Assembly: GCA_032718475.1 (NCBI GenBank)
Contig: JAUCBJ010004109.1
Location: forward strand, 1-64,000
Source: Nemertoderma westbladi
Lineage: Eukaryota > Animalia > Xenacoelomorpha
Length of the DNA stretch: 64,000 nucleotides
Reading direction: 5' to 3'
Below the pieces are notes generated by a model, which worked only from the letters and a program-made list of their open reading frames with translations, did no database searches and was not told where the DNA came from. Position numbers and translations under genes: made by a program. Below, piece by piece: positions 5,231 through 41,626 of the stretch (positions are counted from its first letter, which is position 1; every line of letters begins with the position of its first letter).

Positions 5231-6676
5231 ACTTCGGATACATCAGCCTCCCCATCATCGCTGGTTGTCTTGAGAAGTTCTGAATACTGAAAGAAATAGT
5301 CAGATGTATTACAAAGTCATATAAAGTTAAACTATAAAAGTAAACAGGTGATTCACATATGTCTGTAAAAACTGTTCCTGTATCATGACGATTTCAAAGA
5401 CATGATTTTGTCTCGAGCAAGTTCGTCAAAGGAGGACCGTTTTAAAGAAAATTACCTGCACCATTAACTAATTGTTGTGTCTGCCAATTGGGCTCCCTGT
5501 TGCGGGATAAATCCATTAATAATTTAAATATTAATAAGGGCATGCATGACGGGCTTTAGCTTGTTTGGATTGAAGCGCAGGGACCATCAGAGAGGGATAT
5601 AGGTGTAAATTGTTGGGAGAGCGTCTGGTTATTGAGTGTGAGGGAGAGAGAGAGAGAGAGGGAATCTGTATTGAGCTGTGATGGTTAGATTGCAATGGCG
5701 CGAGGTGAGTGGTAATTAAAAGGTCGGGTGAAGGGCAATGTAATAGTATGCTGAGGGGGGGAACCTGTTACCGTGTAGAAACAAGCCAATAAAAATAGCT
5801 TCCTGGTTGACACGGTAGGGAGTGCCTTATTGCTAAAAAAGTTTGGTTAACCAATCAGGATGCAATATAGATAGATAGGAAAATCCAATCTTGTTTTATA
5901 TACGAACAATATATTATTCTTGATGTAAATTAATTAGGACAGAATCCCCGAGAGGATGCAATGATTTGTAATGGGGCCCTTTGGCAGAAAAACCGATTAG
6001 CATCCTGTTTGGTTTTCCATAATTAAATATATTATTTACCGGTGAATTATTAGTAAATTAATTAGTATTAACTGAAATAACTAAAAAGGAAGAATGAAGA
6101 TAAACTATCATTTTGAATAGTACGTAATTTATGGGACGAGCCTTACGGGCGGGTTTTCGGTCAAACCCATATACCGTGTAACCACTGAGGGGATTCCAAG
6201 AACACTCCCACAATGCATTACCAATCGGTTATATGCAGTCTTCAAGTCATACTCATACTATTTTAATAGTTGAAGGCTAAAAACTCCATCGTTTATTAAA
6301 ATATTATAATTTTTTGTTTTTTAAACTACACCCCCAAACGGGGTAATCTGTATAAATATGATAATGATGACAATGCGTTACTGCTGACTTAATACATCAT
6401 TAATGGATTTTACCATTTTGCAAAATAGGCTGGAAACCTCACATCTGAGTTTGTTTTCTTTATGGAATAATATGATAATGACATCTGTCGCATTGTTTAA
6501 TCTAATTCACTCCTATTGTTTTGAACAGGGTTGTAGTAAAGTAACGTTGTAATTAAATAACCAATTAATATCAACAATCAACTACTCCCTTATTAATACC
6601 ATTCCCTTACAGCGAGATGATTTCTTACAAATATTTACTTTCCCCCTGTGCCACCTTTAGTTTTCCCCAACCTAGT

Positions 6677-8854
6677 TGTTACGGTATATGGCGCTGTATC
6701 CACAGTATTAGTCCATTATGCAGTATGCAGTATTAGTCCATTATGCAGTATGCAGTATTAGTCCGTTATACTGTACGTAATATTAGTCCGTTGTGCAGTA
6801 TAATTATTTAGATAAGGCGCAGTGTGGTGACATTTAGGTAAGGAAGTTAAAACGCCCATATATTTTGCATCCATTCATTTTGTATAGTATGTAGCCCTAC
6901 CTACGTAATTTTGTATTAGGATATATGTAGATAGTTCCAGGGTAGCGAGTTTACTCGGACCCTGGATTTTGTGCTTGCTGATATTAGTTTGATAGGGCTA
7001 GCATATAGGGACGCTGTCCTGGCCATTCAGCAGCCAGAGACGTGATCCATTACCATATATGGTAATAATTTGAGGGCATAGGGCTACAATCCGGTCTCCT
7101 TATTGGATTAACTGCTTCCAGGTTGGTTTAATGCTAGCATGGACTGGAGAGCCAATGGGAGAGCGATTGAGTCACCTTATTGCATCACCCCATCCGGATC
7201 ACCTATAAATTGGCGGTGTGCCGGTAGGGCCTTTGTTGTTCATATGTTCATGCCTTATCACATGACACACCCTTGTTACAATTTACTTGCTGAGCTGTCT
7301 CTAATTTCGTATTAGGATATCGTATTTTCTGCAATTTGCTAATTTTGATTAATTTCTTGGAATGATTTGCTAGTGCGATTACTTTGCTTGTGTTTCTCAA
7401 TAATTCCTTCGATTACTGCTAATTACAATTGAACTATGATTTCTACCTTTGATTAATGGTTCTATGTGATTCTTTTCTGCGCAATAATCCCAAGGGATTC
7501 CTGAGACTGTCAGACTTTGTGATTTGCATGCGCCGCTACAGTAGCTATTAGCATCATGGAGGGCTAAGGTGCCAGTGGGCGGTGGGCGCATCGGGGGGTT
7601 GAGCGACTAGGAGAGAGCGGAGGATTCAAAGCGGGCAACGCTGGCCAGGGTCACCGTTGCGGGCGGGTATCTTGCACTGCGGCACGCAGACCGATCGCCG
7701 GTACAGTATCTAGGGGGCTGATGATCCAGGTTTTGTCTCTATTTAGTATTAGGGGGGCAGGAATTGGGTTAGTTAGGAATCCTAGATGTACCCGGGAGAG
7801 GCCTGCGCGTATTATAACGTTGAGTGTGGAGTACGAGTAGTGAATTGCACAATTGTAAACTGTGATTTCTAACGCTGATTGGTGTGTTATTGAAGTGTGC
7901 CTAAGATTACGAATGCTTAGATAGGCGCTCTTTTTCCTTTGATTGATTTCTATTTCTTAGTTACAATAATTAGTTATTGATTAGGTCAAAGTAATACGGC
8001 AATTTAGGCTATTACTAGCGAAACCTGTTGCGTGATAAATTAGAATTACGTATTCTGGAACTCTTAGTAATTAGTACGCTGTTAAATATTTGTGACTGTA
8101 ATTAATTAGTAAAAATTAAGAATTAGTACGCAGCATAGCGGAGAGTAGCTAAGGTAATAATTAGTGTACTGTAAACTATTCACGCTGAGCGGTTATTTGC
8201 ATTAGCGGACAATCAGCTAGAACGCACTATTCGGTACGCACGATACGCTAGTAATTTTGCTGGCCTAAAGCCAGTCGCGGGCAGTTTTAGACTCGGAGTG
8301 GTATTATCCACGTAGAAACAGATACTGTACCATTTTGATATTTTAAATATTCTCGCATTCACACATTACGTTAGGGAACCTCCAGTATTCGCGATTAGAA
8401 AGACGTAGGTAATAGCGTGCTTTAATAGTGATAAAATTAGGCGTAAGAATACTCTGAGTGCAAGGCCTCTCGCACTCGTCTTAAGTAAGCTTAGGGAGCC
8501 GACTCGGGTTTATTGTTTTGGTTATTCCCGCGTGGCTCATAGATTCGAACAGTTAGCTCTCTATCGAGCGATCGGTAGAGAAAGGAACAAGCGATTTTGC
8601 AGGAGTTGTGTAAAATTAGTAAAATATATTAGTGGACGGCAGATTAGCGCCATCTAACGGTAAGTAGCGGTTTTGTATTTAGCAACCCTTACAATTTAGT
8701 AATAGCACGCTCCTGATCCCCTTTACTTAACAGTAGAGCAGTCTTTGTGTCTTATTGGATAGGCGAGAGCTTATTAGGTTGGCAGAAGGATATTAACGGG
8801 TATTGGTCTGTTCAACAGTTCTGCTGTTAGTATAGAGGTCGCGGTTGTTTATCA
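6677..8854 (+). repeat. 5' LTR (2178 bp)
   Basis: Starts TGTTACGG and ends TTTATCA. Direct repeat of 24624-26801 at offset 17947; only two mismatches noticed by eye. Candidate TATA (TATAAA) near 7204. Confidence 0.97.
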
Positions 8855-8866
8855 GTAATACGCGCA
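8855..8866 (+). promoter_or_regulatory. Non-canonical primer-binding site complementary to the element's own LTR
   Basis: The sequence after the LTR is GTAATACGCGCA, with no TGG. Positions 8856-8866 are the exact reverse complement of TGCGCGTATTA at 7804-7814. Confidence 0.65.
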
Positions 8867-10044
8867 TATTGCTTTGCTGTACCGCGTACAGCAAGGCAGA
8901 GAGTATTCTTAGGCTGTTAGTAGTATCATAGTATTAGGCAATAAGTTAGAGCACGTGATCGTCTGCTGTAGGCTATAGGCTAGCGTACAGTAAGACATTG
9001 AGTTTATTCTATTAGGTTGTTAGTTTATATTACTGTATTCACTGGCTGCGTACACTAGTACAGTAGTACATTAGGCTGATTGCTGTTACTGCGTACGGTA
9101 GAAGGACATTTGTTTGCCGTACCACACACACAGTATCATTAGGCTGTTAGGTTGGTGTACTGTTTTACTTACTGTACTGCATACAGTGGATGTACGGTAG
9201 TGCGTTTTGCTAATTGCGAATACAGCAGTTCCTTAGGCCTTAGGGCAAACTGTAATTAGTAAGTTTTTTGAAAATTTTTAGCTAGGTTTGCGAGAATTCA
9301 GTTTTCGGTCAAAATTATTTGTAAAATTCTAGAGTTTTGTACCGGTATGTTAGGTAACCGCTTAGTTATTTTATACCATCTGGAGATACATGGCAAGACG
9401 GAACTTCTGAGTTTGGGGTTCGTGTGGGTCTGCGGGTTCGGTTTGCAATCAGCGAAGGGCCTGAATCTTTGGACGCGGACGTGGAATCTCACAGCAAACA
9501 AGGTTAGTTGTTCTGTTGGCACCAGTGTGTTTGTGGAAGCAGTAAAAAATTATCGGTTGTTTAACTGCGAAGCTGAACTCAATTTATTAGTTAGGATATT
9601 TAGGTTTAGCCGGCCATGGTTTTTTGAATCGCTCAAGTTAGAGAGAGAGTTAGAGAGAGTCGCAACCCGAAGATGTAGCCACGCGCTAGTGGATACATAT
9701 AATATTTGAAATTAAAATTACGTTGATTAGAGCTATATATAAAATTAGAAATATTCGGGTGGCAAGTTTATTTGAATATTTTGTATTAGATTCAAGGTTA
9801 TTTTGTGCTATACCGGTATTTAATATTATATAGTAGCTATATAATAATATTTTTGTTTAAATATTGTGTTAGTATTTGCTATAACTATATACCCCATTAA
9901 ATTCACAATATTGCATTGCGAATTTATTTTGACATTTGGACCAACTGATTATTTGACAAATAATTTGACCGTATTTCGGTTAAATTATAATTATATCTCG
10001 AACTTTTGCGAGATTTTTGCCGGAAGGCAAATATTATTTAGACT

Positions 10045-12327
10045 ATGAGTGTCTCAGACAAAGAGGCACTAGAGGACAGCTATGAGACGGCGGCTGGACC
10101 GCCGACTGACGATAGCGTCAATATTACTGTTGATGACAATGCCGACTATGACGACGCAGCGAGCGACGCTGACGTAAGTGAACAGGAGGACGAGACAGTG
10201 ACTAGTGAGGAAGAACAGCAGCCTCAGGTAATAGTATTAGGATCCCCTACCGCTACTGATAGGAAGGACTGTACGGCAGCCCGGACAGAGGTGAGTGATA
10301 GGGAGGGTAGTGTAGCAGAAGCGAGAGCCCGGAGCCCGGTTTCCAGACCTGTGGGTATGGTAAGTGCCGTGGTCCCGACGGCTGTTAGGAGTACCCGTAG
10401 TTCCCGAAATAATCCTTCAAGTCCACCGAGCGTAAGTCAGGTGAGTGATAGAGAGTTCGATATCGCGATAAAGAAGAAACTTCGCGCGCATGCCGGACAC
10501 ATAACCCGGACGGCGGACAAGGTAAGGAAGATGTTAGCTGACTCAGCGAACATCGGGAGGGTAGACTTAGTAGAGATTAGAAGAGGATATAACTCAGCGT
10601 TATTCAAGCAGACGGAGGAGCTTGCAGTCCTAGCGAAGAAGGCAGTAGAGTCTCAGTCGAGCGACGTAGCAACGAGGATTTACGACAGGGTTTTAGCAGC
10701 CTTGTTAGAGCACCGCGAGTTATCGGAGCGATTCCGACGAGTTAGGACGGAGAACTGGCTGCTATGGACATCACAAGCGCAGGCGACTCAAGTGAGTGAC
10801 GCAGAGTTGAGAGAGTTAGTGGAGCGAGAAGAGATCCAAGACAAGGAGGAGCGCAGGTATCAAAGGGAAGTTACTAGCTGGCTGATGCAGAATGGAGTGG
10901 TGGTACCAGGTCAGGTGCTACCGACGACGGAGAACATCCAACAGAGGACGTTGACTCCACCCGATGATGCATCTAGAGACAGCGGCGATTCCCAGGTTAG
11001 TCACGTGCGAGGTAAGGTAATATGTGCTAGATCCCTTGTTTCTCACAACTCGGCAGAGGAGAGAAGACGCCGACTAGACGAACAGCAGGCGGAAGTTTTG
11101 CGTGCATCGGAAGCACGGAAGGAAGCCGAGCGGGAACGGGAGCGAACACGTAAGTTAGACGCAAAGTTGCGAGAGTTGGAAGACAAAGGTAAGCGTGAGC
11201 AAGCGGAACGCGAACAGGAAGAACGAGAACTCCAACTTGAACGTGAACGCGAAGAGCACGAACTCCAACTCCAACGCGAACGCGAACTCCAACTCCAACG
11301 CGAACGCGAAGAACGTGAACTCCAACTCCATCGCGAACGCGAACGGGAAGCTAAGGAACGCGAGCAAAGAAGACGCGAACTCCAACTCGAACGCGAGCGC
11401 AAGGAGCGCGAACTTGAGCGCGAGAGGGAGCGACGGGCGTTGTATGAAGAGAAGGCGCGTGTAGAAGAAGAGGGCGCAGCACGACGAGCGAGGGAAGAAG
11501 AAGAACGTAAACTGGCGCAGTTGGAAAGTGCGAGATTAAGTTTAGAAAGCGAAGAACGGACTAGGAAGGCGAACGAAATCGCCGAGAAGGGGATGCGAAT
11601 GATCGAAGAATGTGGGGCGAGTGTAGGGACTGAGTTGCGAGAACTGTTCGCACTGCAGAAGGCCGAACAGGAAGCGAGAACTCCGACTATACGCGAGTCG
11701 ACGACGACCAGAATTCCTATACCCGGTCCAGCTATTACGAGTACACGGATCGCTAAACCATTCTCTACATATCGCACGCCAGTTGGTATTAGTGCTTCAC
11801 CTATCGCGCAGAATCCACGTCATCGGAACACCGCACCACTGCACACCGAACACGACGATGAAGAATTTAGAGAAGAAACTCCGACGGGCCGAGTATTTGG
11901 CGAACCGAACCCGCGGGTTTGGAATACGCAGACGGAGCGCCGACCCAGTTCGACGGAGAACTTCCGGGTTAAACCGGAAGAGGGATCATATGAGAGACAG
12001 CGGATTACTCAGATAGAGCCGACTATACAACAGAACCCTAGCCAGGAATTTATTACGAGGGATGAGTTAAGTGCTAGTTTAGCGCAAGCTATATCGCCGC
12101 ACATCCAACCTATAACGGACATGCTTAGCAACCTACGGTTAAAGGAAGCAGCCCAGGTAAGGAGTAATTCTAATCCCAGCAGGCCTGAGTTAGATAAAGT
12201 CCAGCCTAGTCAACGAGTACGCATATCGGAGGAAACTATACCACATAGACCTCAGGTAAGGACGCCTGTCCCGAATATCCATAATCCCAATTTCGAAAAT
12301 TCGGCAGAAAGATACCTAAAGAGGTGA
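10045..12327 (+). CDS. gag: BEL/Pao Gag N-terminal part (putative exon 1, 10045-12313; 760 aa if unspliced)
   Basis: Acidic N-terminus, helical KKKLRAHAGHITRT region and long E/R coiled coil, as is typical upstream of the BEL Gag core. The stop TGA (12325-12327) lies inside the putative intron's P1 loop. Confidence 0.85.
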   Translation: MSVSDKEALEDSYETAAGPPTDDSVNITVDDNADYDDAASDADVSEQEDETVTSEEEQQPQVIVLGSPTATDRKDCTAARTEVSDREGSVAEARARSPVSRPVGMVSAVVPTAVRSTRSSRNNPSSPPSVSQVSDREFDIAIKKKLRAHAGHITRTADKVRKMLADSANIGRVDLVEIRRGYNSALFKQTEELAVLAKKAVESQSSDVATRIYDRVLAALLEHRELSERFRRVRTENWLLWTSQAQATQVSDAELRELVEREEIQDKEERRYQREVTSWLMQNGVVVPGQVLPTTENIQQRTLTPPDDASRDSGDSQVSHVRGKVICARSLVSHNSAEERRRRLDEQQAEVLRASEARKEAERERERTRKLDAKLRELEDKGKREQAEREQEERELQLEREREEHELQLQRERELQLQREREERELQLHREREREAKEREQRRRELQLERERKERELERERERRALYEEKARVEEEGAARRAREEEERKLAQLESARLSLESEERTRKANEIAEKGMRMIEECGASVGTELRELFALQKAEQEARTPTIRESTTTRIPIPGPAITSTRIAKPFSTYRTPVGISASPIAQNPRHRNTAPLHTEHDDEEFREETPTGRVFGEPNPRVWNTQTERRPSSTENFRVKPEEGSYERQRITQIEPTIQQNPSQEFITRDELSASLAQAISPHIQPITDMLSNLRLKEAAQVRSNSNPSRPELDKVQPSQRVRISEETIPHRPQVRTPVPNIHNPNFENSAERYLKR

Positions 12328-13502
12328 GGTCTCTATAGGGGTGTCTTTAGCAGGCGGCGGCGGACTCGTGAGGGTCTGGGGGCACGTTAAAATCTGCCGT
12401 ATAGTGCAAGGGAGTTACTTAAGGCCCTCGTGTCTAACGAACCATGAATCGACATGGTGCCGTGGTATCGTCTAGTCGGCCTGTTGCCGTACTGCCAGTC
12501 CTGTACACAGTAGGGGTGGTGGCATGGCGTGATTTGTGGTTCATGTGGTGTGAACTGTGATTTGTATGTGGGCGACCAGTGGCAGTTAGCTTTGGGGCTT
12601 GGATGTGTGCCATTGACCGTCAGCTGTTCCGTTTTTTTGATACTATATGTTATTGTCTCCATGTTCAGCTGATTGGTCCTTGGAGTGTGTTTAGGTCTGA
12701 GATGAGCTTTCTGTTGCTGTGGGTACGTGAGTACACGTGATTGTATGTGTGGCCACTGCGAGTGAGTGTGGGAAACCTTGCCGGTTGGCCCAGACGCCGC
12801 TGGTATTAGTAGGACCATACTTTACTGCGCCCCAGCATACTTTGTGCACACAAGTTATTTTACCCTGACGGTAAAATAAGGTACTCTCGACTTTCTCATT
12901 CTCTCTCAAGTCGATACAACTAGTCCCTCCCGATTTTGACCCCGATTTTGTCTTTCCCGATTATGTCCTCTGTGTGTGCATGGTATGTGTCAGATTTTGT
13001 GTTTACCGTAGTGTACTTGATATTGTGAACATCTGTTGAGTACACGTGTATAGGACTGGTAAGTGGTTACTTGTTCCTAGCTTTCGAGCTAGTCAGTATT
13101 GTTTGCGGAACTTACTTCCCCTCAATACTGCCGGCGAGGCGGGTGAAAATGTGTCAAAATTCCATGTGGGGTAGCGCAAGCCCACATGGGACAAGACCGT
13201 CGGTTAGGCCCAAGGGCGACCTTGGTGCTTGATCGCTATCGACTGGTCCACCCGCCGGTTGACTCTCTGAGTTGGCTCAATGTACAGTCAGGCCACAGTG
13301 AGTTGACAGTAGCGGCCCATCTGGCTACACGTTCGACGAGCTGTGCCGGTGTGATCGGGGGACCGAAAACAGAACCCGGGAAGCATCGGGCCACCCTCCG
13401 GCCCGGTCTGATAATAACATCAGTCAGACTGGCCCCAGGGGTGGTGGAAAGGTGTCCGCCTCGTGGGTGCGCCTCGGGGAGGAGCCCAGAAGGACACAAG
13501 CG
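12314..13502 (+). ncRNA. Putative group I self-splicing intron within gag (3' end uncertain)
   Basis: P1 AAAGAU(12308-13)/GUCUUU(12343-48) with U.G; P3 GGCGGGUG(13138-45)/CACCCGCC(13249-56); P4 13149-55/13195-200 with A-rich J4/5; P5 13160-91; P6 CGGUUA(13201-06)/UGAUCG(13230-35) plus a GCGA-capped P6b; J6/7 CUA; P7 U-C(bulge)-GACUG(13239-45)/CAGUCA(13285-90); P8 13257-77; J8/7 CAAUGUA; several P9-region hairpins; candidate terminal G at 13502. Confidence 0.8.
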
Positions 13503-16500
13503 TTATTGAGGAAGCTTGGGTCAGGGCCTCGGCGCGCAAACCATCGCGAGCGCTAAGGACTGACACTGAGTCAAGCGATGAAGAGGAAGAAATGAGACGT
13601 CAGAAGTCCCGAAACTATAAGGAAAGAAGGACGGACGCGGAGCAGGTAAGTTGGAACCACCGGGAAAGGACCAGACTTAGCAACCCTGCGGAACTAAACC
13701 ATTTGTTAACCCGGAACGACGCAACCCTTAGAGACATAGGTAAGTTTGCTGCTAGGCAAGGACTGCCGACGCAACAACCCCAGAAGTTTATGGGTAACCA
13801 CAAGCACTGGAGGACCTTCAAAACCTATGTCGACGAGCAGCTAACCAACAGCACCTTTACTCCCAACGAGAAGTTCAACTATTTGCTTCAGATGCTCCAT
13901 CGAGAACCTAGAGCCATTGCTGATAACTTCGTCGGCAATGAACGGGCATTCGAGTTAGCGATGAAGACGCTTAGTGACATCTACGGGAATAAAACCAAGA
14001 TGGCGCAGTCGATAGTAGAAGACTTGGGTAAGGGCGGAAGGATTACAACTCCGTTAGAGCTGTTGAACTTAGCGAACGCTATTTCGAACGCATTGGACAT
14101 CTTGAGGACGGTGAATCTACCTCATCATGGTGATCACGCCGAAGTTTTGAAAAGCGTAATAAGACGTTTAAACATGCGTTACAGACAGAAATGGCGCAAA
14201 TTAGAGAATAAGTTGGAGGGCCAAGGTAAAGTATTGACACTTCAGCATATTCATGACATGATAGCCACAGACGCAGTAGCAGATATGAAATCAAACTTCT
14301 CAGAAGAGAATATGAGGGAGTCTAAACCTGTTACCGGTAAGTCTATGGTAAGTTTTGACGATGACAGGACCACTGTGACATTTAACTCAGTAGACAGATA
14401 TAATTCGAGTACCCCAGCCTTTAGATCAGACTCGCGAGTATGGTCAGGTGAGCGGTTAGATAGACCTAGGTTAAAGCAACAGGAGTTACCGGATGGATTT
14501 GTAGGTTGCCAATACTGTTTACTAAAGGAGGTAAGATCTGACGACCATAAGTTAGATAGTTGCAGACGGTTCAAAGAATTAAATTCGGAACAGAGAAGAG
14601 TTCAAGTGCGGACGTTGGACACCTGTTGGGCATGTCTTGCGCCAGGTCATGTACGGCGGCAGTGCCCTAACAGCAAGGACGGATGCATGGAATGCGGCAG
14701 ACTACATCACAAGTTGCTACATGCGGATTTCCATACCCCAACGGACCGTTACTTACAGCGAAATCCTCACAGGAAGGGGAGCAAAGAACCCGTATCGATA
14801 AGGAGGAATACATACACTGGCATCCGGGACGATGGTTACCAACCAGGTTCGTCGGACGAGGATGGCGAGTCGAGCGCGAGAGAAGTGACCTGCCAAGGTT
14901 TCACCGCGGATAGTTCATCGACCAGCGCGCGGACGTATTTATCATCGGCCACGTCGGAAATATTTAGCGTGATTCCGGTGAAACTCACTGGCGATAAGGG
15001 ATCGAAGCGAATATATGTGATGTTGGACACTGCGTCCACATTATCATATATCGACGAGGAAGTGGCGAGAGCCGTTTCTAGCTTCCAGGACGCCGAGGAG
15101 ATCCAAATAGAGTTGAAGTCTATGCATGGGGTAGGAGACCTCAAGGGACACAGAATTTCGGTGGAACTAGATTCCCTACTTCCGAGAGACCAGCATACTC
15201 GACAAGAACGGAAAGCTTTGCCATTGGACGGATTTAAGTGTCTAGCTATGAAGGGATTCGGCAGGCAGTTAGGTAAGGTGCCGCCGATGAGTCCCATAGC
15301 ACAGGAGTATTTTGACAAGCTCAGGATACCCAGACACCAGGTAGGTTATAGGAATGTTTCTATGTTAATTGGTGCAGAACAGCTGATCGCACACCAGATA
15401 TGGGAAACGAGACCAGCTGAGCCGCATGTCAATGGACCACATGCCCATAGGACCATACTAGGTTGGTATACACGAGTACCCATGTCTTATGAGTTTACAG
15501 GTGGCGACAAGCCAATGGACAGATACGACGAATTACAGCCTATAACTCAACCACCGTTAGTAGAACCACCAGACATAGACGAGTTTAGGAGAACCTGCAT
15601 TGACCACTATAGTGACTTTAGCGAGTCGGACGAGGAGTTGATTCCCGATAATGTTAGGTTGTCGGAACCACTTCATAACGACCGGACAGATAGTGAACCC
15701 GAGGACTACTGTTATCAGACCCGTGGGTCTGGTTCAGCGGCCCACGCTACCTATTTGACTAACGTTTTGACTTATACAGACATAGTGGAGGGTCAAGTGG
15801 CTAAATATCGAGACCTAGACATTTTCCAATACAGTGAGGAGGAATTACAGAAGGAATTGATACGCCAGGACCTCGAGACAGGAGCCAGAACCGTCGAATG
15901 GCTGGATAGGGACGCAATGGAACCCGGTGGATATGACCTAGCCATGTCTACTGATGAGAAACGGTCGCTGGAGATGATGGAAGACACCATACGTCTGCTA
16001 CCGACTGGACATTTTGAAGTTGGAATGTTGTGGCGTCGACAACCACCTAAGTTGGAGAACAACTACAACTTAGCCTTGAAAAGATTGAACGGAGTAAGGG
16101 CTCGGTTGTTGAAGAATCCGGACATTAGGGAGAAGTATTGCGCCCAGATCAACAACTATTTCGCCAAGGGATTTGCTGGGAAGGTAGAGGACCCTGACTT
16201 AGTGACAGACCAGACTTATTACCTTCCACACCACTATGTGACTCACCCTGACAAGCCAGACAAAGTCCGAGTAGTCAACGACTGCGCAGCAGTCTATAGA
16301 GGTATGTCCCTGAATTCAGAGTTGATGGATGGTCCCAACCTGAATAACTATTTGATAGGAATACTGTTGCGTTTTAGACAGCGGCGATTCGCATTTACTT
16401 GTGACATCGAGGCGATGTTCCACCAGGTAAGAGCCTGTAAGGCAGACCAGGATAGCCTTCGCTTTCTCTGGTACGAGAACGAAGACTTATCCGGCCCAGT

Positions 16501-18364
16501 GGTTACATACCAAATGTACGTTAGGATATTTGGCGCCCGCGATAGTCCGAACGGCACGCTGTTTGTTCTAAAGAAAACGGCAACAGCCCAGATTGGTAAG
16601 TACCCAGTAGAAGTAATCGAGTCCATCTTGAGAAACTTCTATATGGACGACGGATTGGTGTCCAAGGACACGGCGGAACAAGCCATAGAAGTGGCTCACG
16701 GCCTGCAAGAGTGCTTGGCTACAGGGGGATTTCCTCTGACCAAGTTCACTACTAATTCGGAGGCCCTATTAGAATCGTTCCCGGTAAAAGATCGCGGGAG
16801 CGGAGACATAGAATTGGGGGTAGAACCAATCCCCATGGCGCGAGTACTGGGACTCGCTTGGAATCCGAATTCAGACAAGTTCCAGGTAAGAGTTAGATTT
16901 GAGCCCAGTAGCCCAGACAAAGTTTTGACAAAGAGGATTTGCTTATCGACATTAAGTAGAATATTTGACCCGATGAACTTTATCAGTCCGGTTATATTAC
17001 AGGCACGAGCGTGCATGAGGAAAATTTGGTTGTCCGACTTAGAGTGGGACGAACCAATATCTCCTATACATGCAAAGCAGTGGAGGGAGTGGGAAGCCGA
17101 GTTGCATCTGTTGAAAAATATAGATGTACCCCGTTCCTACTTTCCGAATCAGTTGGTATTTCCAACTGATTTAGAGCTGCACCTATTTAGTGACGCAAGT
17201 GACACCGGCTTTGGTATGGTAGCCTACCTTCGCCGAGAGGTAAGTCAGGACAAGTTTGAGACGGCCTTTGTGACTTCTAGATCAAAGACAATGCCGGTCA
17301 AATATATGACTGTCCCTCGTGCAGAGTTACAGGCGGCTGTAGTTTCGGTCGAGGTAAGTAAGCAGATAATTGAGGAGTTAGACACGACATTGACCTTATT
17401 CTATTGGACGGATGCATCCTTGGTGTTAGTATACATTGCGGCCGACAATATTGCACTAAAGACATTTGTGGCCAATAGACGCGCTCAGATCGTTGACTTT
17501 TCAACGAAGGAACAATGGAGACATTGTCCGGGAGTGTTGAACCCGGCCGACATAACTTCGAGAGGTGCAATGCCGGCGGAATTCTGTCGGGAAGAGTCGC
17601 AGGAGTTTTGGTTGCATGGACCTGATTTTCTAACAAGGACACAGGAACATTGGCCAGAGCGACTAAAGATAGTGACCAATCCGATGCCTGAAGATGCAGA
17701 AGTCAAAGTGGAGAAAGTCTCTAAGTCGAAGTCTAAAGCCAAACTTAAGTCATTGGAGCGGCCTGAAGAGTCATTGGAGCGGCCTGAAGAGTTATTGGAG
17801 CGGCCCGGAGACCTGTCAGACCAACAGACTTACGTGACTACTAGGTCAGGAAGGGTAAGTTATGACGTAAAACCACCCTTACAGACTAAACCGGAGTCAC
17901 AGTTGGTAAGTGACGGACAGAAAATGACCGACACAATGGAGCCTTTGGTTTCCAAACCTGCGGGTTTGGATTCGAAACTTCCATTGGTCAGCGGACAACC
18001 GTCGCTGGCATTAGAGTCATGCAGTATTTATGACAAATTACTAAATTCGTCTGCCTCTTGGCTGACAATTTGTAAAAGAACTGCGTGGTTAAGCCGATAC
18101 GTTTCGTACCTTTGTTTAAAACATTCGAAACATTTGAGAGAACCATCGAGCGCCAATAGTGAGCGAATTCGGAAATTGAAACAACCTCTGACAGAGGATG
18201 AGATTGATCAAGCGGAATTAAAGCATTTGAAACACTATCAAATGTGTGCCTTCCCAAAAGAATTCCATCTATTATCGGCTCAACGACTAGTTCTCTATAA
18301 ACCCCTTAGAAAATGGAGTCCATTAATCCATAAGGGTTTGATTTGTCATAGATCGAGAATCTAG
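13503..18364 (+). CDS. gag-pol: BEL/Pao Gag core, zinc knuckles, protease, reverse transcriptase and RNase H (putative exon 2; ORF track 13463..18364)
   Basis: Gag core KFMGNHKHWRTF...EKFNYLLQML; knuckles CQYC..H..C, CWACLAPGHVRRQC, CMECGRLHHKLLH; PR LDTAS; RT DIEAMF and YMDD; RNase H FSDAS, ELQA, WTDA, NPADITSRG. No convincing own start (the track start is GTG). Confidence 0.95.
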
Positions 18365-19615
18365 ACTGTCGACATAAACTCACAGTTTCGGTTCCCAGTG
18401 ATAATCCCTAGTCACCCAATAGAATTGCAAAGAGCGATTCTATGGGATATACACAAGAGGTTGCATCACGCGGGAAAGTTACACTGTCTGTCGGCAGCGA
18501 GACAGCGATTCATTCTATTGCAGCCAAGCAGGGCAGTAGGCACTATGTACGACGCCTGTCTGGTTTGCAAGAGAGTGAACGCCAGAGTATTGGAACAGGA
18601 GATGGCTGAACTCCCGGAAGCGAGAGTGCAGGCATATGACCCACCCTTTACGAACACAGGGGTGGATTGTTTTGGTCCGATTGAGGCAAAGAGTGGACGG
18701 CTGACCCACAAGCGATGGGGTCTGCTACTGACATGTATGGCGAGTAGAGCCATACACATCGAGCGTGTGGCAGACATGTCGACCAAATCTCTGCTCCTGG
18801 CCTTAAAGAGATTTATGGCCAGGAGAGGACTAGTAAAGGCGTTCTACTCTGACAAGGGTACAAACTTTGTCGGAGGGAATAGCGAGTTGAACGCGGCTCA
18901 TAAAGCAGCACAGAATAAGGAAATTTCTGCAGCACTTTTGCCGCAACGAGTAGAGTGGAGATTCAATACTCCAGAAAGTCCTTGGAGAGGAGGAAGTTGG
19001 GAGCGTTTAGTTCGCTCTGTAAAGCAGGCCATTGCTAAGACGTTGCCTGTAAACAAACAACTTACCGACGACGAACTGGTTACAGCTTACATTGAAATCG
19101 AGCATACCCTAAACTCGAGGCCGATAGCTATGTTGCCAGACGGTGTTGCATTAACGCCGAATCATTTGCTAATGCAGAGTCCAGCATTTCTTGTGCCGGC
19201 ATCAGAACCCATTAGTGCCGACCTATATAGTCGTAAGAGCTGGAAAGTAACACAGTTAGTGGCGTACACATTCTGGGAATATTGGCGGGAATACTATCTT
19301 CCCACCATATCTACCAGAACAAAGTGGTACAAGACGGTTCGGAGTCTCCAAAGGGGAGATTACGTGTTGATAACCGAGCCGATTATCAAGAGAAAGTATT
19401 GGGAGACAGGAGTTATCTTGCACACACACCCAGACGCGCAAAACATAGTGCGCACAGTCACTGTGAAAATTAGGTGCAAGTGTCCGCACCCAAAAAAGTG
19501 TAAAACTGATGGTTTGCACACCTTGGACCGACCGGTCCAAGATATTGTGTTATTAGAGGAGACACGTATCGAGACGGGAGATTATAATTTGTCTCCTGCC
19601 TCAAAACAGAGTTAG
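18365..19615 (+). CDS. Integrase, same frame as pol, separated by a single TAG
   Basis: HHCC (IHKRLHHAG...CLVC), DCFGP, SDKGTNF, GGSWERLV. The frame continues RSRI*TVDINSQFRFPVIIP across TAG 18362-18364. Confidence 0.93.
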   Translation, partial: TVDINSQFRFPVIIPSHPIELQRAILWDIHKRLHHAGKLHCLSAARQRFILLQPSRAVGTMYDACLVCKRVNARVLEQEMAELPEARVQAYDPPFTNTGVDCFGPIEAKSGRLTHKRWGLLLTCMASRAIHIERVADMSTKSLLLALKRFMARRGLVKAFYSDKGTNFVGGNSELNAAHKAAQNKEISAALLPQRVEWRFNTPESPWRGGSWERLVRSVKQAIAKTLPVNKQLTDDELVTAYIEIEHTLNSRPIAMLPDGVALTPNHLLMQSPAFLVPASEPISADLYSRKSWKVTQLVAYTFWEYWREYYLPTISTRTKWYKTVRSLQRGDYVLITEPIIKRKYWETGVILHTHPDAQNIVRTVTVKIRCKCPHPKKCKTDGLHTLDRPVQDIVLLEETRIETGDYNLSPASKQS

Positions 19616-20373
19616 TGTTGGACGCAACTCACTTCGTATGCATTCCTCGTATGCAAATACAAGGAAATGCATAGGAGCGGGGTTGTGGTGATTTGCGTTG
19701 AGTTTTGTCTGGTGGGTATCAAAACAAAATTTTATTTCAAAAATTTTGGAAAAAATTAGAAAATTTTAAAAATTAGAAGTGAACCCAAGACAATTCCAGA
19801 CGCTGTGTATAGACGCGTTTTAGAATTCGTCTATAGATAACAGTAATTTGAAAGTCGTGAAGCCTGGAAAATAGCATTTAGAAACCATGGTGACGGCTAT
19901 ATTACGTAGGAGTGTAAATTGAGTTTAGCAACTTCCACAGATTGGTGCCAACAGTGCAACTAAGGTGCTAAAGGTTAGTAGCACCAGAGGCGTGCACGGA
20001 CCCCACTCAGTAGTTTGCAGGATGTGTGATGTTCGATTATCAAACCTGTGGGTTTGGTATAGTCGAGTATTGTGGCTATGGTCCTTTCTAACTACTGTAG
20101 TTTAGTACGAGTAATGGGAGTAGTTTGGGCATCAAAAAGTGAGTTGGTCACGGCCAGTTTATCTCCAAAGTTTTTGCGCTATGCATGGGAATAGGTTAGA
20201 GGATAGTTAGTTAGGAAGAGACGGGATCTAGAGAGTCGAACCTGAACTGCTGGAAGGCGGGGGGGGTTCGGGAGGTCTGTCCTTCGGCGACATCTAACTG
20301 ATTTACCCACAGTGTAGTTGGTTACGTAACGGCACTTATTGGGATATATATATATGTATATACGCGTAACATA

Positions 20374-23300
20374 ATGGAGAGGGATATTAGAGCGCAACCG
20401 CGCAGAGGATTTACTGCCAGAGAGGAGGCGGAGCTACCATTCGCGCGACCAGGATGTAAAGACTCTAACATTTACTACCATGGGCGGTCCGTGATGGAGC
20501 TGAACGGGAAGTACAAACCAAGTTATGATAAAGAATTACGGAGAGAAAGAATGAGAGCGTTGGGGGACCGGATGGAAGTCTTGCGGAGAGAGTATCGCAC
20601 GCGGTATCCCTACGACTTTGCTTTGGACGTGTGCGACATTAGCGCAGATCCGGACGAGGAAATCGCACGACTATACCATATGAATATGTATTTACGACAT
20701 GAGGAGCCTCTACCTGCAGTCCGAGACCAGTTCGACGGAATGCACCTGTATCGGAGGACTCGAGGCGAGGATCAGGAGACGCCGAAAGTCTTCGGCGTAT
20801 ACAAGCTCTTCTACAAGTGTGGTGAATGCATGAATAAACAGGACGTGGCGATTCCCGACCGATTAGACGAGCAACATCCGGAACCGATATTAACGCGATG
20901 TCCAGCTCACCAATTCCTTAGATACAACGAGGGAGGTTACCCGATGAGCAACCCGATGATCAGTATCGACTTCAGCGGAAAGCGACCTCCGAGACCCATT
21001 ACGCCGACCGTTACGACATTAGATCCGTATACGGAGATTAAACCCTGTTCGACACCCAGTTTGATAGAGACGGCAGCGGCCATTTCGCTGTACCGAGCCT
21101 ATAAGGATCTAGAGGCGCGGCGCGAAGCGGCGCGGGACTCGGGTACCAAACCCGCGGGTTTGGAGCTCTCGAGTCCCTGGACTGCGTTTACTTCACCTCA
21201 CCGAGTGAGAAGCCTCACGCCTGAGCATCAGGACGACATAGACGCGTTGCGGCAGGAGGAGCGAGCGGCGAAGGCGAAAGAGTTATTTGAGAACAGGATA
21301 GCGGAGTATAATAAGACCGCGGATAGACATCAAGAGGAGACGAGGAGAGTGACCGGATTTGTTCCACAGGTCGTATCTCAACCCGGACCGGTGTATTATT
21401 CCGACGGCACCGAACCTGCGATATTAGTAGATCATCCGGAGTCGCGAGAAGCGATACGATTCTTGCCGATGGTAAGAATGGCGGACCATTGGAACGTTGA
21501 CTGTCTACGGGAAGTTTTATGCGCGAAGTTCTTGCGTGATGTCCCAATGCAGATCACAGATTACGACACTTTGGATAAGATTGGAGCTCCGGGGAAGGAG
21601 AGTAAACTATTCGGATGGTTGGATAAGTACATCAAGGTATGGGTCGCGGTGGCTACATTCCCAGACGACGAGGAGGTAGACCAGACGTGGCTGAGGAGGA
21701 AGGGTTCTTATACCCGATATGATGACCACAAGGCTATCGAGCGCATGTGGACCCCATCAGATGAGATTCAGCGTCAGTGGAGGAAAACGGAGGAATCACT
21801 GCAGGATTGGAGAGTGATGTTCTACGACAATGAAGGAGGGTCCCATCAGGAATGTTTGACCAGCAAGTGTATTCAAATTCGTGCGGCCGATGGTGTGACT
21901 CATGTGTTTATGCGTATGAGGGCGGATCGAGAGAGACCGGAGCCCATCATAACGACACAATATCGGAAAGGGAAGGATCCTAGGGAACCGATTTTGGAGG
22001 TATGCAGGCGAGGAGGTATGCACGGAGCGGAGCGTATCGACGCCAGGATGTTACCCAAGAAAGTTAGAGAGGCTATTCTCAACCAAGATTACGTCAAGGT
22101 GGGATCGGGAGCCCAGAGCGATTTGGAGAGCGACTTCAACGCCATGACTGATCTGGAAGATAGATTGCCGAGACCGTTTGTCGACACCAAGCTATTGTTG
22201 CTATGGGCACAGGATATTGGAATTTATAGGGAGTATCCCAACTCTGCCAAGACTGGTATGGGCTTTATAGCACACTTGTTGTATAATTGGGACTTTAAGT
22301 TAAAGACGCAAAAGAAGTACGAGGAGGCGTATGGCGAATACAACACGCCACCGGGAGCGGAGTTCAAATCCCACTTCAAGCGGCAAGCGTTAGTGTATTG
22401 GAACATTTGCGCGCCACCCCGTGCGTCGCTACAATATTATTTGGTGCTTGAGTCGAACACGGTGACTTGTTTATTAGCGGATATCGTTGCGCGAGTTTTG
22501 AAGCGTCATCCATTGGTATTCGGAGGAGATCAATACGTTCGCTCGAAAAGGGGAATCCAATCCGACGTGATGAAGCGTTTCTTAACCCCGTTCTTCAACC
22601 AATCGTTAGAGAATACGTCGATGGTGAGGAGAGGATTAGCGATATTCGAAGGAGTATATCGACAGAACATCGGAGATTTGGGAGACCGACCGTCGATGGA
22701 ATATCCGACGCCAGAAGCTTTGGAGAAGTGGTTCGGGAATCAAACCCGCGGGTTTGGTACTCCCTTCCACTCGGAGGCTGATAGACCTGTTAAGGAGGGC
22801 TGGCCGGAAACGTTAGTAGAGGTGTTCGGAGTAGATCTTCCGGTGGAGAAGACATATCCGAAACGAACGCGGGAGGAAATATTGGAGATAGAGGACAAGG
22901 GCGAGGATGTTTACTTTGTTCCGGATCGACAACCGTTGACCGGAGAGGACGACATCGTATTAGACATTGGGAAGGAAGGAAGTGCGAAACCGATTGGAGA
23001 CCTCATATACGAGAGGGCCTGGTTTCCACAAGCGCGTAGGTGCAAATTGTGCGGCAGCACAAGGCACAATCTAAAGTCGTGCGACGCGGTAATAGAGGCG
23101 GCGCATAAGGTCTGTCGTTGGTGTAATGAGACCAACCATTCGTTTCACACGTGCACCGTCTTCATTTCTCAATGTGGATATTGTGGAGTAAAAGGACATC
23201 GTAGCGCGAGATGTCAGCTGCGAGATGATTCCTTTCAAAACCATAGCGCTAACCTACTTCGGGAGATGTTAGACAAGTGGGAGAGTGTGGCGGATTACCA

Positions 23301-24210
23301 TATTCAAGCGCAGATGCGTTGGTTACCATTTAAAGCGGGATATGGGTTTTGGGCGGTAGACCCATCGCATGTTGCGTACGAGCCATATCTTCAATCGCTA
23401 CCACAATATCAGGAGCTCATCCTAACTGCTCAAGACCTTCCACAGAACACTGGAGTTATCGTAGTCCGAGAATACTTCAGACAATTGAACATGGACAATA
23501 AGTACACATGGAACTTCGTTGCTATTTGCGATCGCATCACGAAGGGTGTATTTACGGAGACTAGAAAAGTGGTACGCGCGCGAGGTGATTGGAGGATGGC
23601 GGCTATACAATACCGCAACGAATTCTTGTTGACTCATGTGCCAGTGGGTTCATTGACCGCCGAGAGGATACAGGAACAAAGGATCGCAGCGACCACAGCG
23701 ACGACCGCTGGAGCTCAAGGCTCGCGGAAAGAACCAGGAGGAGGGGTCCAAGACAAGCGTCAAGTCAAGGACGACCACTACCACTCCATTATAGAAGCTC
23801 AACGGTTGCAGCGCAAGGCGCAGGGGGCGTCTGAGAAAGCGCGTGTGCAACTGCAGAAGGAAGAGTTGGCGGAAGCGACCACGGGAGCGCGACAATTGGG
23901 ACGAGGCCGAGGGAGAAGTTCGAGCCGAGAATCTGTCGGGGCTCAGGGAACGTCGTCGTCGGTTCCGGGGAGTGACGCCTCACGGACGCCGTCAACGGAG
24001 TCGACTAGAGGTAGATTAGTGTATCTTGGGAAGGGGACGAAAGAGAGGAGCGAGCCCATAGAACCCAGGAGCGGGTCGATAATACATTATGGCACAGGGC
24101 GACAGACTCTAGATATATACATCATCGTCGCTCTGATGTATATTGTAGCATTTGAAAATTTTCGACTAGACTCGTATACACTAGTTGAGTTATTTGAATT
24201 TATATTATGA
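20374..24210 (+). CDS. Accessory ORF3 (1278 aa): DEDDy 3'-5' exonuclease-like domain plus three CCHC zinc knuckles
   Basis: ExoI VMFYDNEG (~21814-21837), CIQIRAADGVTHVF, ExoII LPKKVREAILNQDYVKVGSGAQSDL, FVDT, ExoIII-like W..APPRASLQYYLVLE (to ~22452). Knuckles CKLCGSTRHNLKSC, CRWCNETNHSFHTC, CGYCGVKGHRSARC (23041-23214). Intact ORF inside the LTRs. Confidence 0.8.
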   Translation: MERDIRAQPRRGFTAREEAELPFARPGCKDSNIYYHGRSVMELNGKYKPSYDKELRRERMRALGDRMEVLRREYRTRYPYDFALDVCDISADPDEEIARLYHMNMYLRHEEPLPAVRDQFDGMHLYRRTRGEDQETPKVFGVYKLFYKCGECMNKQDVAIPDRLDEQHPEPILTRCPAHQFLRYNEGGYPMSNPMISIDFSGKRPPRPITPTVTTLDPYTEIKPCSTPSLIETAAAISLYRAYKDLEARREAARDSGTKPAGLELSSPWTAFTSPHRVRSLTPEHQDDIDALRQEERAAKAKELFENRIAEYNKTADRHQEETRRVTGFVPQVVSQPGPVYYSDGTEPAILVDHPESREAIRFLPMVRMADHWNVDCLREVLCAKFLRDVPMQITDYDTLDKIGAPGKESKLFGWLDKYIKVWVAVATFPDDEEVDQTWLRRKGSYTRYDDHKAIERMWTPSDEIQRQWRKTEESLQDWRVMFYDNEGGSHQECLTSKCIQIRAADGVTHVFMRMRADRERPEPIITTQYRKGKDPREPILEVCRRGGMHGAERIDARMLPKKVREAILNQDYVKVGSGAQSDLESDFNAMTDLEDRLPRPFVDTKLLLLWAQDIGIYREYPNSAKTGMGFIAHLLYNWDFKLKTQKKYEEAYGEYNTPPGAEFKSHFKRQALVYWNICAPPRASLQYYLVLESNTVTCLLADIVARVLKRHPLVFGGDQYVRSKRGIQSDVMKRFLTPFFNQSLENTSMVRRGLAIFEGVYRQNIGDLGDRPSMEYPTPEALEKWFGNQTRGFGTPFHSEADRPVKEGWPETLVEVFGVDLPVEKTYPKRTREEILEIEDKGEDVYFVPDRQPLTGEDDIVLDIGKEGSAKPIGDLIYERAWFPQARRCKLCGSTRHNLKSCDAVIEAAHKVCRWCNETNHSFHTCTVFISQCGYCGVKGHRSARCQLRDDSFQNHSANLLREMLDKWESVADYHIQAQMRWLPFKAGYGFWAVDPSHVAYEPYLQSLPQYQELILTAQDLPQNTGVIVVREYFRQLNMDNKYTWNFVAICDRITKGVFTETRKVVRARGDWRMAAIQYRNEFLLTHVPVGSLTAERIQEQRIAATTATTAGAQGSRKEPGGGVQDKRQVKDDHYHSIIEAQRLQRKAQGASEKARVQLQKEELAEATTGARQLGRGRGRSSSRESVGAQGTSSSVPGSDASRTPSTESTRGRLVYLGKGTKERSEPIEPRSGSIIHYGTGRQTLDIYIIVALMYIVAFENFRLDSYTLVELFEFIL

Positions 24211-24616: not shown

Positions 24617-24623
24617 GGAGCGG
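24617..24623 (+). promoter_or_regulatory. Short polypurine-tract-like motif before the 3' LTR
   Basis: GGAGCGG directly abuts the TG of the 3' LTR and is preceded by a GAGGGAAA...TTTCCCTT hairpin. Confidence 0.55.
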
Positions 24624-26801
24624 TGTTACGGTATATGGCGCTGTATCCACAGTATTAGTCCATTATGCAGTATGCAGTATTAGTCCATTATGCAGTATGC
24701 AGTATTAGTCCGTTATACTGTACGTAATATTAGTCCGTTGTGCAGTATAATTATTTAGATAAGGCGCAGTGTGGTGACATTTAGGTAAGGAAGTTAAAAC
24801 GCCCATATATTTTGCATCCATTCATTTTGTATAGTATGTAGCCCTACCTACGTAATTTTGTATTAGGATATATGTAGATAGTTCCAGGGTAGCGAGTTTA
24901 CTCGGACCCTGGATTTTGTGCTTGCTGATATTAGTTTGATAGGGCTAGCATATAGGGACGCTGTCCTGGCCATTCAGCAGCCAGAGACGTGATCCATTAC
25001 CATATATGGTAATAATTTGAGGGCATAGGGCTACAATCCGGTCTCCTTATTGGATTAACTGCTTCCAGGTTGGTTTAATGCTAGCATGGACTGGAGAGCC
25101 AATGGGAGAGCGATTGAGTCACCTTATTGCATCACCCCATCCGGATCACCTATAAATTGGCGGTGTGCCGGTAGGGCCTTTGTTGTTCATATGTTCATGC
25201 CTTATCACATGACACACCCTTGTTACAATTTACTTGCTGAGCTGTCTCTAATTTCGTATTAGGATATCGTATTTTCTGCAATTTGCTAATTTTGATTAAT
25301 TTCTTGGAATGATTTGCTAGTGCGATTACTTTGCTTGTGTTTCTCAATAATTCCTTCGATTACTGCTAATTACAATTGAACTATGATTTCTACCTTTGAT
25401 TAATGGTTCTATGTGATTCTTTTCTGCGCAATAATCCCAAGGGATTCCTGAGACTGTCAGACTTTGTGATTTGCATGCGCCGCTACGGTAGCTATTAGCA
25501 TCATGGAGGGCTAAGGTGCCAGTGGGCGGTGGGCGCATCGGGGGGTTGAGCGACTAGGAGAGAGCGGAGGATTCAAAGCGGGCAACGCTGGCCAGGGTCA
25601 CCGTTGCGGGCGGGTATCTTGCACTGCGGCACGCAGACCGATCGCCGGTACAGTATCTAGGGGGCTGATGATCCAGGTTTTGTCTCTATTTAGTATTAGG
25701 GGGGCAGGAATTGGGTTAGTTAGGAATCCTAGATGTACCCGGGAGAGGCCTGCGCGTATTATAACGTTGAGTGTGGAGTACGAGTAGTGAATTGCACAAT
25801 TGTAAACTGTGATTTCTAACGCTGATTGGTGTGTTATTGAAGTGTGCCTAAGATTACGAATGCTTAGATAGGCGCTCTTTTTCCTTTGATTGATTTCTAT
25901 TTCTTAGTTACAATAATTAGTTATTGATTAGGTCAAAGTAATACGGCAATTTAGGCTATTACTAGCGAAACCTGTTGCGTGATAAATTAGAATTACGTAT
26001 TCTGGAACTCTTAGTAATTAGTACGCTGTTAAATATTTGTGACTGTAATTAATTAGTAAAAATTAAGAATTAGTACGCAGCATAGCGGAGAGTAGCTAAG
26101 GTAATAATTAGTGTACTGTAAACTATTCACGCTGAGCGGTTATTTGCATTAGCGGACAATCAGCTAGAACGCACTATTCGGTACGCACGATATGCTAGTA
26201 ATTTTGCTGGCCTAAAGCCAGTCGCGGGCAGTTTTAGACTCGGAGTGGTATTATCCACGTAGAAACAGATACTGTACCATTTTGATATTTTAAATATTCT
26301 CGCATTCACACATTACGTTAGGGAACCTCCAGTATTCGCGATTAGAAAGACGTAGGTAATAGCGTGCTTTAATAGTGATAAAATTAGGCGTAAGAATACT
26401 CTGAGTGCAAGGCCTCTCGCACTCGTCTTAAGTAAGCTTAGGGAGCCGACTCGGGTTTATTGTTTTGGTTATTCCCGCGTGGCTCATAGATTCGAACAGT
26501 TAGCTCTCTATCGAGCGATCGGTAGAGAAAGGAACAAGCGATTTTGCAGGAGTTGTGTAAAATTAGTAAAATATATTAGTGGACGGCAGATTAGCGCCAT
26601 CTAACGGTAAGTAGCGGTTTTGTATTTAGCAACCCTTACAATTTAGTAATAGCACGCTCCTGATCCCCTTTACTTAACAGTAGAGCAGTCTTTGTGTCTT
26701 ATTGGATAGGCGAGAGCTTATTAGGTTGGCAGAAGGATATTAACGGGTATTGGTCTGTTCAACAGTTCTGCTGTTAGTATAGAGGTCGCGGTTGTTTATC
26801 A
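24624..26801 (+). repeat. 3' LTR (2178 bp)
   Basis: Near-identical to the 5' LTR and followed by TSD CTAGT. Confidence 0.97.
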
Positions 26802-40333: not shown

Positions 40334-41626
40334 GGATCTAGGACACTTCCCCCCCGGACACTTCCCCCCCGCCCAAGTAGGACACTTCCCCCCCGCCCAA
40401 GTAGGACACTTCCCCCCCGGACACTTCCCCCCCGGACACTTCCCCCCCGGACACTTCCCCCCCGCCCAAGTAGGACACTTCCCCCCCGCCCAAGTAGGAC
40501 ACTTCCCCCCCGGACACTTCCCCCCCGGACACTTGCCCCCCGGACACTTCCCCCCCAGTTAAAGTGTTAAAATTAATCTGGGTGCATCAAAGCAATAAAC
40601 AAAAGTTAAAGATGGTTACAGGACAACTTGTATCTAGACAAGTTTTTTCAAAATTATAAAAGAAACATTTTTATAGTCAAATTTTGTTTGTTTTTCTTTT
40701 AATTCCTTTAATTCTTTTAATTTCTTTTAATTGGGGACTGCCGCCCCCAAACCCCCGCTTCTTTTCTTGGGGGCTGCCGCCCCCAAACCCCCGCTTCTTT
40801 TCTTGGGGGTTATCGCCCCCAGACCCCGGCATTTCCCTGAGTGCCCGTGGTGAAAAACTTAAGACCACTTTGAAATAATTAATTCATGTTTGTATCATCA
40901 GATAATAAATTGACTAAGCCTAAAGTAGGAGCTGTATTGAATGTTAACCAATTTAATATATAAATTACTACAATATTATATAAATCAACAAAATCCTATT
41001 AAAAATATTGCATGTAACCAGGAAATTTAATATATAGTGTGTATAATATCTATATAGTACTGTATGTATAGTAGTAATATGTATATCAATATGTAATGCT
41101 GAACACAGAATACAGGTCGACGCATGTCGATTTTACCCTGGAGAGGTATAATTTTGATTGCAACAATAATATTCATCCCCATCTGCTACAATTTGAAGAA
41201 GACTATTACATAATAATACCTATTAATAATTAAAACAATTAATTATTATAATTCTATAGTTAATAAAAACAGTATATCATTCCGGGTATGGAATTTATAG
41301 GTCATCTAATATAATTAATTGTTTAAAGATTAGCAAACAATACGATGTAATTGCATTGATAAAACCCATAAATAAAACTTGGATATAAAATGTTAAATCG
41401 GGATGCAAAAGATCACTTTCTGAGCTACGAAAGGAAAATTGGATACAACTTATCTGGATACAAGCGGTCCGTTTACCTTACAAAATGAAAATTACGAATG
41501 TGCGAAGTTAAGAACAGTCGGGGGGGGAGTGTCCGCGGGGGGGAATTGTCTGGGGGGAAGTGTCCGGGGGGGAAGTGTCCTACTTGAGCGGGGGGGAACT
41601 GTCCGGGGGGGAAGTGTCCGAACACC
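40334..41626. mobile_element. Non-autonomous MULE/Mutator-type foldback element
   Basis: Exact 9-bp TSD ATAACCATC (40325-40333 and 41627-41635), GG...CC ends, and TIRs built from GGACACTTCCCCCCC subrepeats and their inverse. Confidence 0.9.

Follow-up and report, generated by a model that had tools for sequence, protein, structure and literature searches.

A BEL/Pao retrotransposon that likely primes reverse transcription from its own LTR

Introduction

How does a BEL/Pao retrotransposon begin minus-strand DNA synthesis when no tRNA-type primer-binding site (PBS) stands behind its 5' LTR? The question is raised by an LTR element in the 64-kb stretch of DNA that was analysed as a whole and is called the window below. 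According to the ICTV profile, the Belpaoviridae carry an 18-nt PBS for tRNA-Arg or tRNA-Gly, and their replication is poorly understood (PMC8742986). Achilles carries a tRNA-Tyr PBS (PMC4580426). Self-priming is described for Tf1, where the RNA's first 11 bases serve as the primer and are released by an RNase H cut (PMC7175516), for Tj1 (PMC4600332), and for Tcn1 and the copia TAR lineage (PMC6317226). Three further papers, as far as their accessible text extends, name it only for the Ty3/gypsy Tf1/sushi-type, Tcn1 and copia TAR groups (PMC3601003, PMC6934838, PMC5443660). The literature search, which covered listings and the beginnings of abstracts and had Repbase reports, subscription journals and bioRxiv supplements outside its scope, returned no paper on self-priming in BEL/Pao elements or on a splice-built primer, and a passing remark in print is possible. 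The available main text of three BEL surveys (PMC3118150, PMC554778, PMC6238403) and of PMC12440569 does not mention primer or PBS, and their supplements may list PBSs. The results presented here indicate that the element's minus-strand DNA synthesis likely uses as its primer not a tRNA but a piece of the element's own RNA, LTR positions 7804-7815.

Structure and coding content of the element

The element spans 6677-26801 of the window (20125 bp, about 20.1 kb) and shows the structural traits of BEL/Pao elements, namely two TG...CA LTRs, a target duplication and a PPT position (Table 1). The 5' and 3' LTRs differ by two mismatches in 2178 bp, at 7540 and 8246 only. LTRs that differ at just two places, together with CTAGT at both ends, indicate that the insertion is young.

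Table 1. Coordinates of the element and of its predicted or candidate features in the window
Feature	Position	Strand	Remarks
Target-site duplication, left	6672..6676	+	CTAGT
5' LTR	6677..8854	+	2178 bp, TG...CA; direct repeat with 24624-26801
CCAAT (7152) and TATAAA (7204), candidate early promoter	7152..7209	+	motif scan
GC-rich stretch with two GGGCGG boxes, candidate second promoter	7577..7776	+	GC 0.67 and 0.52 in two 100-nt bins
Putative self-primer	7804..7815	+	11 Watson-Crick pairs and one G.U pair with the PBS
PBS position	8855..8866	+	without TGG; begins with GT, as in 11 of 12 relatives
Predicted 13-bp hairpin	8869..8897	+	folding; directly 3' of the PBS
ORF1	10042..12327	+	761 aa, long charged repeat region
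Gag-protease-RT-RNase H frame	13418..18364	+	1648 aa; stop codon precedes integrase
Integrase frame	18365..19615	+	416 aa; PF17921, PF18701
Extra ORF3	20302..24210	+	ATG at 20374, 1278 aa, Cys/His knuckles
Short purine-rich tract GGAGCGG at the PPT position	24617..24623	+	directly before the 3' LTR
3' LTR	24624..26801	+	second primer-site copy at 25751-25762
Target-site duplication, right	26802..26806	+	CTAGT

The interior of the element holds four long plus-strand frames in the ORF listing. ORF1 had no Pfam match and, from its position, is probably the N-terminal part of Gag. The frame that follows matched PF03564 (E 3e-9) and PF05380 (E 1e-39) in Pfam, and its translation contains LDTAS and YMDD motifs; together with the integrase frame the order of the Pol domains is PF03564, PF05380, PF17921, PF18701, that is, protease-RT-RNase H-integrase. 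PF05380 was present in 120/120 homologs of the RT-RNase H part among the matches listed, the best being 42% identical, and the named homologs among these matches are from marine animals, sea urchins, corals and molluscs among them. Judged by the sequence of its Pol, the element is a BEL/Pao retrotransposon.

The gag-pol region is split in three pieces (12328-13417, 18362-18364) although the LTRs are nearly identical. One contig of the X1 set, whose RNA status is a guess, skips 12300-13502, so copies of the element differ there. X1 contains 35% of the words, with 45 contigs along the element that are mostly 95-99% alike. Among the 40 of 164 rows listed, there is no splice joint in the LTR and no difference at the primer site or the PBS, which is evidence in neither direction.

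Complementarity between the PBS position and the LTR

Positions 8856-8866 (TAATACGCGCA) are the exact reverse complement of 7804-7814 (TGCGCGTATTA), with 11 Watson-Crick pairs. The base before them, G8855, is the first after the LTR and adds one wobble pair with U7815 (12 pairs); the predicted duplex energy is -15.4 kcal/mol for 11 pairs and -16.8 for 12. In this pairing the would-be primer has its 3' end directed towards the end of the LTR. Both the complementarity, including its wobble extension, and this orientation had been pointed out in a first-pass annotation of the locus, and the coordinates of the two LTRs confirm them. The annotation had also reported that a tRNA-type PBS is missing; indeed, no TGG follows the 5' LTR, so the 3' end of a mature tRNA is not matched as a primer. 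In the window, the only further complement of 8856-8866 is the copy in the 3' LTR (25751-25761).

The probability of such a match arising by chance had been put at about 5e-4 (0.05%), which proved too low because start offsets and the real base composition had to be allowed for. A match of at least 11 nt was obtained in 29/5000 dinucleotide shuffles of the LTR with offsets 0-4 (about 0.6%, ten times likelier than first stated) and in 18/5000 with offsets 0-2, and 3/3146 five-base blocks of the element's own interior matched the LTR over at least 11 nt. The 11-nt match is well beyond chance for a single element.

Between the primer end and the LTR end there are 1040 nt, compared with roughly 75-360 nt in relatives. 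When four candidate transcripts with their 3' end at 8960 were folded, the predicted probability of the duplex was 0.00, a value to be read with the unreliability of folding over 1 kb. A free 12-nt primer was predicted to bind the U5-PBS-leader region, gaining a net 9.4 kcal/mol; the PBS was among the more open stretches (93rd percentile), and the primer site was locally paired (17th percentile). Scans of viral contigs found nothing, and Rfam returned one chance match (E 0.74).

Several signals in the LTR bear on where the RNA could start. The consensus TATA[AT]A[AT] is matched only at 7204, within the candidate early promoter. The GC-rich stretch, with its GC boxes at 7577 and 7661, lies just upstream of the primer site, and TATTATAA at 7810-7817, which overlaps the primer site, is TATA-like and could be a TATA box. 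Neither AATAAA nor ATTAAA was found in the LTR, and R therefore cannot be placed.

A perfect GTAAGT donor is located at 8660, with acceptor-like sites downstream (8660-8830), about where relatives have an LTR intron; TTTATCAG at the LTR end (8848-8855) is acceptor-like as well. A primer built by splicing was considered for the window element and rejected: the best junction match is 8 nt, compared with 11 nt for the contiguous site, which indicates that the element is not of the spliced type. Neither the strongest donor (8660) nor the acceptors at 7746, 8682 and 8830 gave a match to the PBS.

Own-LTR pairing in distant relatives

A metagenome scan yielded 343 relatives among 468 candidates. The best 80 of the 343 (35-43% identity) were used and fell into 42 families, and three further loci from genome contigs raised the number of families or loci to 45; the best RT-RNase H identity to the window element was 43% among the matches listed, which included no close relative. 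The count was restricted to the 12 of 45 in which the LTR end was fixed by comparing the 5' and 3' LTRs. In 12/12 of these families, a stretch of 10-15 nt that begins 0-5 nt behind the LTR pairs with the family's own LTR. The paired PBSs are 11 distinct sequences, as F017 and F024 share one, and the arrangement of the window element is thus seen in distant relatives with other letters.

The pairing runs across a GT..AG junction in 10/12 families (match lengths: F001 10, F005 15, F008 10, F009 11, F017 11, F024 11, F035 11, F043 11, F058 10 and F064 14 nt), and the donor is GTAAG or GTGAG in nine of these ten. It is contiguous in 2/12, the L020 family (10 nt, conserved between two LTR variants that are 79% alike) and L082 (11 nt). 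TGG is missing in 11/12 families; F001, which has TGG one base behind the LTR, is ambiguous. The GT at the start of the paired PBS is shared by the window element if the wobble pair is counted. A G.U pair also stands at this end in L070.

The PBSs and LTRs of the window element and ten families were compared in an 11 x 11 matrix, for which the list of donors was set after the junction matches were known. Own pairs reached at least 10 nt in 10/11 cases and foreign pairs in 3/110, two of the three being F017/F024. Under the strict acceptor rule of the matrix F058 reached 6 nt, and under a looser rule 10 nt. The window PBS matched at most 7 nt on the 10 foreign LTRs, and the 10 foreign PBSs matched at most 9 nt on the window LTR.

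Locus L064 lacks a 117-nt GT..AG intron in its 5' LTR and retains it in its 3' LTR (1-214 compared with 6935-7265), and with the resulting junction the match to the PBS extends over 14 nt. The contig has at least 83 nt upstream of this junction; in the L064 family the primer site is therefore internal and does not comprise the first bases of the RNA. In the L017 family, one of the two copies with a PBS carries an uncompensated PBS mismatch. L047 has a plain tRNA-Met PBS at 70-85, the exact complement of a tRNA-Met end listed in PMC13524379, so both modes of priming occur among the relatives.

Looser scans of 9 + 23 loci, in which the LTR end was not fixed, gave junction matches of 11-14 nt in eight families (L063, L052, L042, L056, L034, L050, L051 and L070). 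These were left uncounted because reversed or complemented controls reached 9-11 nt. The matches of L015 and L060 were treated as chance; L049, L075, L078 and the remaining loci of the looser scans, many of them incomplete, showed nothing clear. L081, L082 and L083 are BEL/Pao elements in contigs filed as bacterial MAGs, most likely through animal contamination. Of L082 the whole element is present, and its two 320-bp LTRs are identical.

Phylogenetic placement was obtained with FastTree (81 rows) and with a quick IQ-TREE search (56 rows, most of the P rows left out). In both trees the window element forms a very long branch outside the splice-type clade, which has a support of 99-100 and contains all 13 labelled splice-type families. 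FastTree joins the window element with L072 and the group containing the tRNA-Met-PBS relative L047, and IQ-TREE places it beside the contiguous L020 family at a weak support of 46. Reference elements of the named BEL/Pao clades (Pao, BEL, Tas, Suzu, Sinbad, Sparrow, Surcouf, Dan and Flow) occur neither among the homologs listed nor in the two trees.

Discussion

By analogy with known systems and with distant relatives rather than members of its own family, the window element is probably self-priming in a way that is Tf1-like in principle, its primer site possibly being internal rather than the 5' end of the RNA. There are good grounds to propose that the RNA would include 7804-7815, pair this stretch with the PBS and be cut at about 7815/7816, after which RT would start from the 3' end so formed and proceed into U5. 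For transcription across the site, for the cut and its enzyme and for the poly(A) site, this scheme follows the model of Tf1. The transcript would start at or upstream of 7804, which would place the primer site in R. Pairing of the site with the PBS would bridge a loop of about 1040 nt, or the primer might come from a second RNA molecule. The cut, probably made by the element's own RNase H as in Tf1, would free a 3'-OH, and RT would copy U5 and then R back to the cut. The first strand transfer would be made possible by the part of R that extends from 7816 to the poly(A) site.

The first-pass annotation had proposed self-priming in a BEL lineage, with the transcript starting or being cleaved near 7804. 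The lineage part of the proposal is supported by the BEL/Pao Pfam domains and by own-LTR pairing in all 12 of the distant families; the strict Tf1 picture, in which the primer is the first 11 nt and the RNA starts near 7804, may or may not apply. The CCAAT and TATAAA motifs at 7152 and 7204 would allow an earlier start, and the sequence upstream of the spliced primer site in L064 likewise limits the case for a start near 7804.

An explanation that does without self-priming would have a fragment of a host tRNA, of the half-tRNA type of the Osser, Bryco and Bianca copia lineages, or another host RNA as the primer, the LTR match being due to chance. The border of the D-stem and the anticodon stem of many tRNAs carries a GCGCGU-like stretch, which is a point for such a primer, and the position of the tRNA-primed L047 near the window element in one tree is another. 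Half-tRNA priming is also on record (PMC6317226). This explanation is nevertheless unlikely, since a chance match of this length appears in so few of the shuffles, a complement in the own LTR is the rule among the relatives that have no clear tRNA site, and the missing TGG leaves no mature tRNA 3' end to be used. Moreover, four 8-9-nt pieces of the site are absent from the seven supplements of PMC13524379, which cover the last 12 nt of metazoan tRNA ends and not internal stretches. No tRNA gene was found in the 64-kb window.

The pairing might also be real and selected and yet act over a long range as an RNA switch that controls packaging, dimer formation or translation, with priming left to something else. 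The unusually long loop, the stable hairpin behind the PBS and the 5' leader of about 1.2 kb up to ORF1 would suit such a role. It is, however, very improbable in view of the geometry: in the window element and in 12/12 relatives, the pairing begins no more than 0-5 nt behind the LTR and is directed at the LTR end, the place at which a primer has to terminate, and no other primer site is visible there. Least credible is a start downstream of the site, near 7840, driven by the TATA-like TATTATAA with the GC boxes at 7577 and 7661 upstream of it; the 5' copy would then be untranscribed, and the match would be a relic or would stem from the copy in the 3' LTR. The TATA consensus is matched only at 7204, and priming from the 3' copy would presumably leave no shared R for strand transfer, so that hardly any room is left for this possibility.

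Self-priming from 7804-7815 would make the window element the contiguous form of a mechanism for which most of the relatives examined would build the primer through removal of an LTR intron by splicing. It appears reasonably plausible, and we lean towards it, that a large branch of the BEL/Pao elements of marine invertebrates normally primes itself, in a contiguous and a splice-assembled form. A fuller scenario would combine this branch-wide, two-form self-priming with a contiguous 20-kb element that cuts its primer 1 kb from the PBS and trims the primer 3' end with its own DEDDy-type ORF3. As a whole it is unlikely, and it is the exonuclease part that lowers its standing below that of the branch-wide proposal.

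ORF3 had no match in Pfam, PDB or two homolog searches. Atlas (language-model) scores of 0.84 and 0.90 point weakly to a DEDDy/EXD1-like 3'-5' exonuclease, and a single-sequence fold was unusable (pLDDT 32). On this language-model lead ORF3 might be a DEDDy 3'-5' exonuclease; a role in primer trimming is speculation. The bdelloid LTR elements Juno and Vesta have an ORF3 with a DEDDy exonuclease (PMC5408684). The window element resembles them in its extra ORF behind pol, for which such an exonuclease is the best lead, but the homology is clear in Juno and Vesta (PMC5408684), whereas here there is a language-model lead in a BEL/Pao element.

Compared with the Belpaoviridae of the ICTV profile, the window element is alike in its LTRs, its PR-RT-RH-IN order, its Pao-specific Pfam domains and the extra ORF behind pol (PMC8742986). 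It differs in having no tRNA PBS in place of the 18-nt one and in size, its LTR of 2.18 kb and length of 20.1 kb being about twice the upper values given there (LTR 0.2-1.2 kb, genome 4.2-10 kb; PMC8742986). Its ORF3 also has no env match. With the Tf1/sushi elements it shares a PBS that can pair with about 11 nt in the own LTR. Nevertheless, Tf1/Tf2 of S. pombe, Tj1 of S. japonicus and the Tf1/sushi and Tcn1 groups have a Ty3/gypsy chromovirus Pol, while the Pol of the window element is of the BEL/Pao type; by its sequence, the element works like Tf1 self-priming and is not a Tf1/sushi member. It also departs from the Tf1 type in its loop of about 1 kb, and most of the relatives examined would need intron removal for the primer. 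For the TAR lineage of Ty1/copia (Houba, Osr-1), too, self-priming outside Tf1/sushi is predicted from PBS-LTR complementarity (PMC6317226). These are plant copia elements and belong to another superfamily with another domain order.

Self-priming in BEL/Pao would be a departure from the textbook description of the whole superfamily. If it is true, self-priming occurs in all three superfamilies of LTR retrotransposons, which bears on whether tRNA priming or self-priming came first and on how often elements switch between them. It would also account for the many marine BEL elements that tRNA-based PBS finders overlook, and would offer a simple rule for annotation. The RNA attached to strong-stop DNA should then derive from the LTR. 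In the relatives a further step would come in, the building of the primer by host splicing.

Other features of the window

Outside the element, the minus strand holds a second RT (PF00078, 35756-37645), probably of the non-LTR type, an MFS transporter (28186-29628), an EamA transporter (46527-47684) and a PDCD9/MRPS30 match (51528-52490). Minisatellites with units of 48, 15, 23 and 18-20 bp are located at 2637-4535, 40317-41620, 43061-43767, 44704-45547 and 55095-58336, and two minisatellites stand in an inverted arrangement, like the ends of a foldback element or a MITE.
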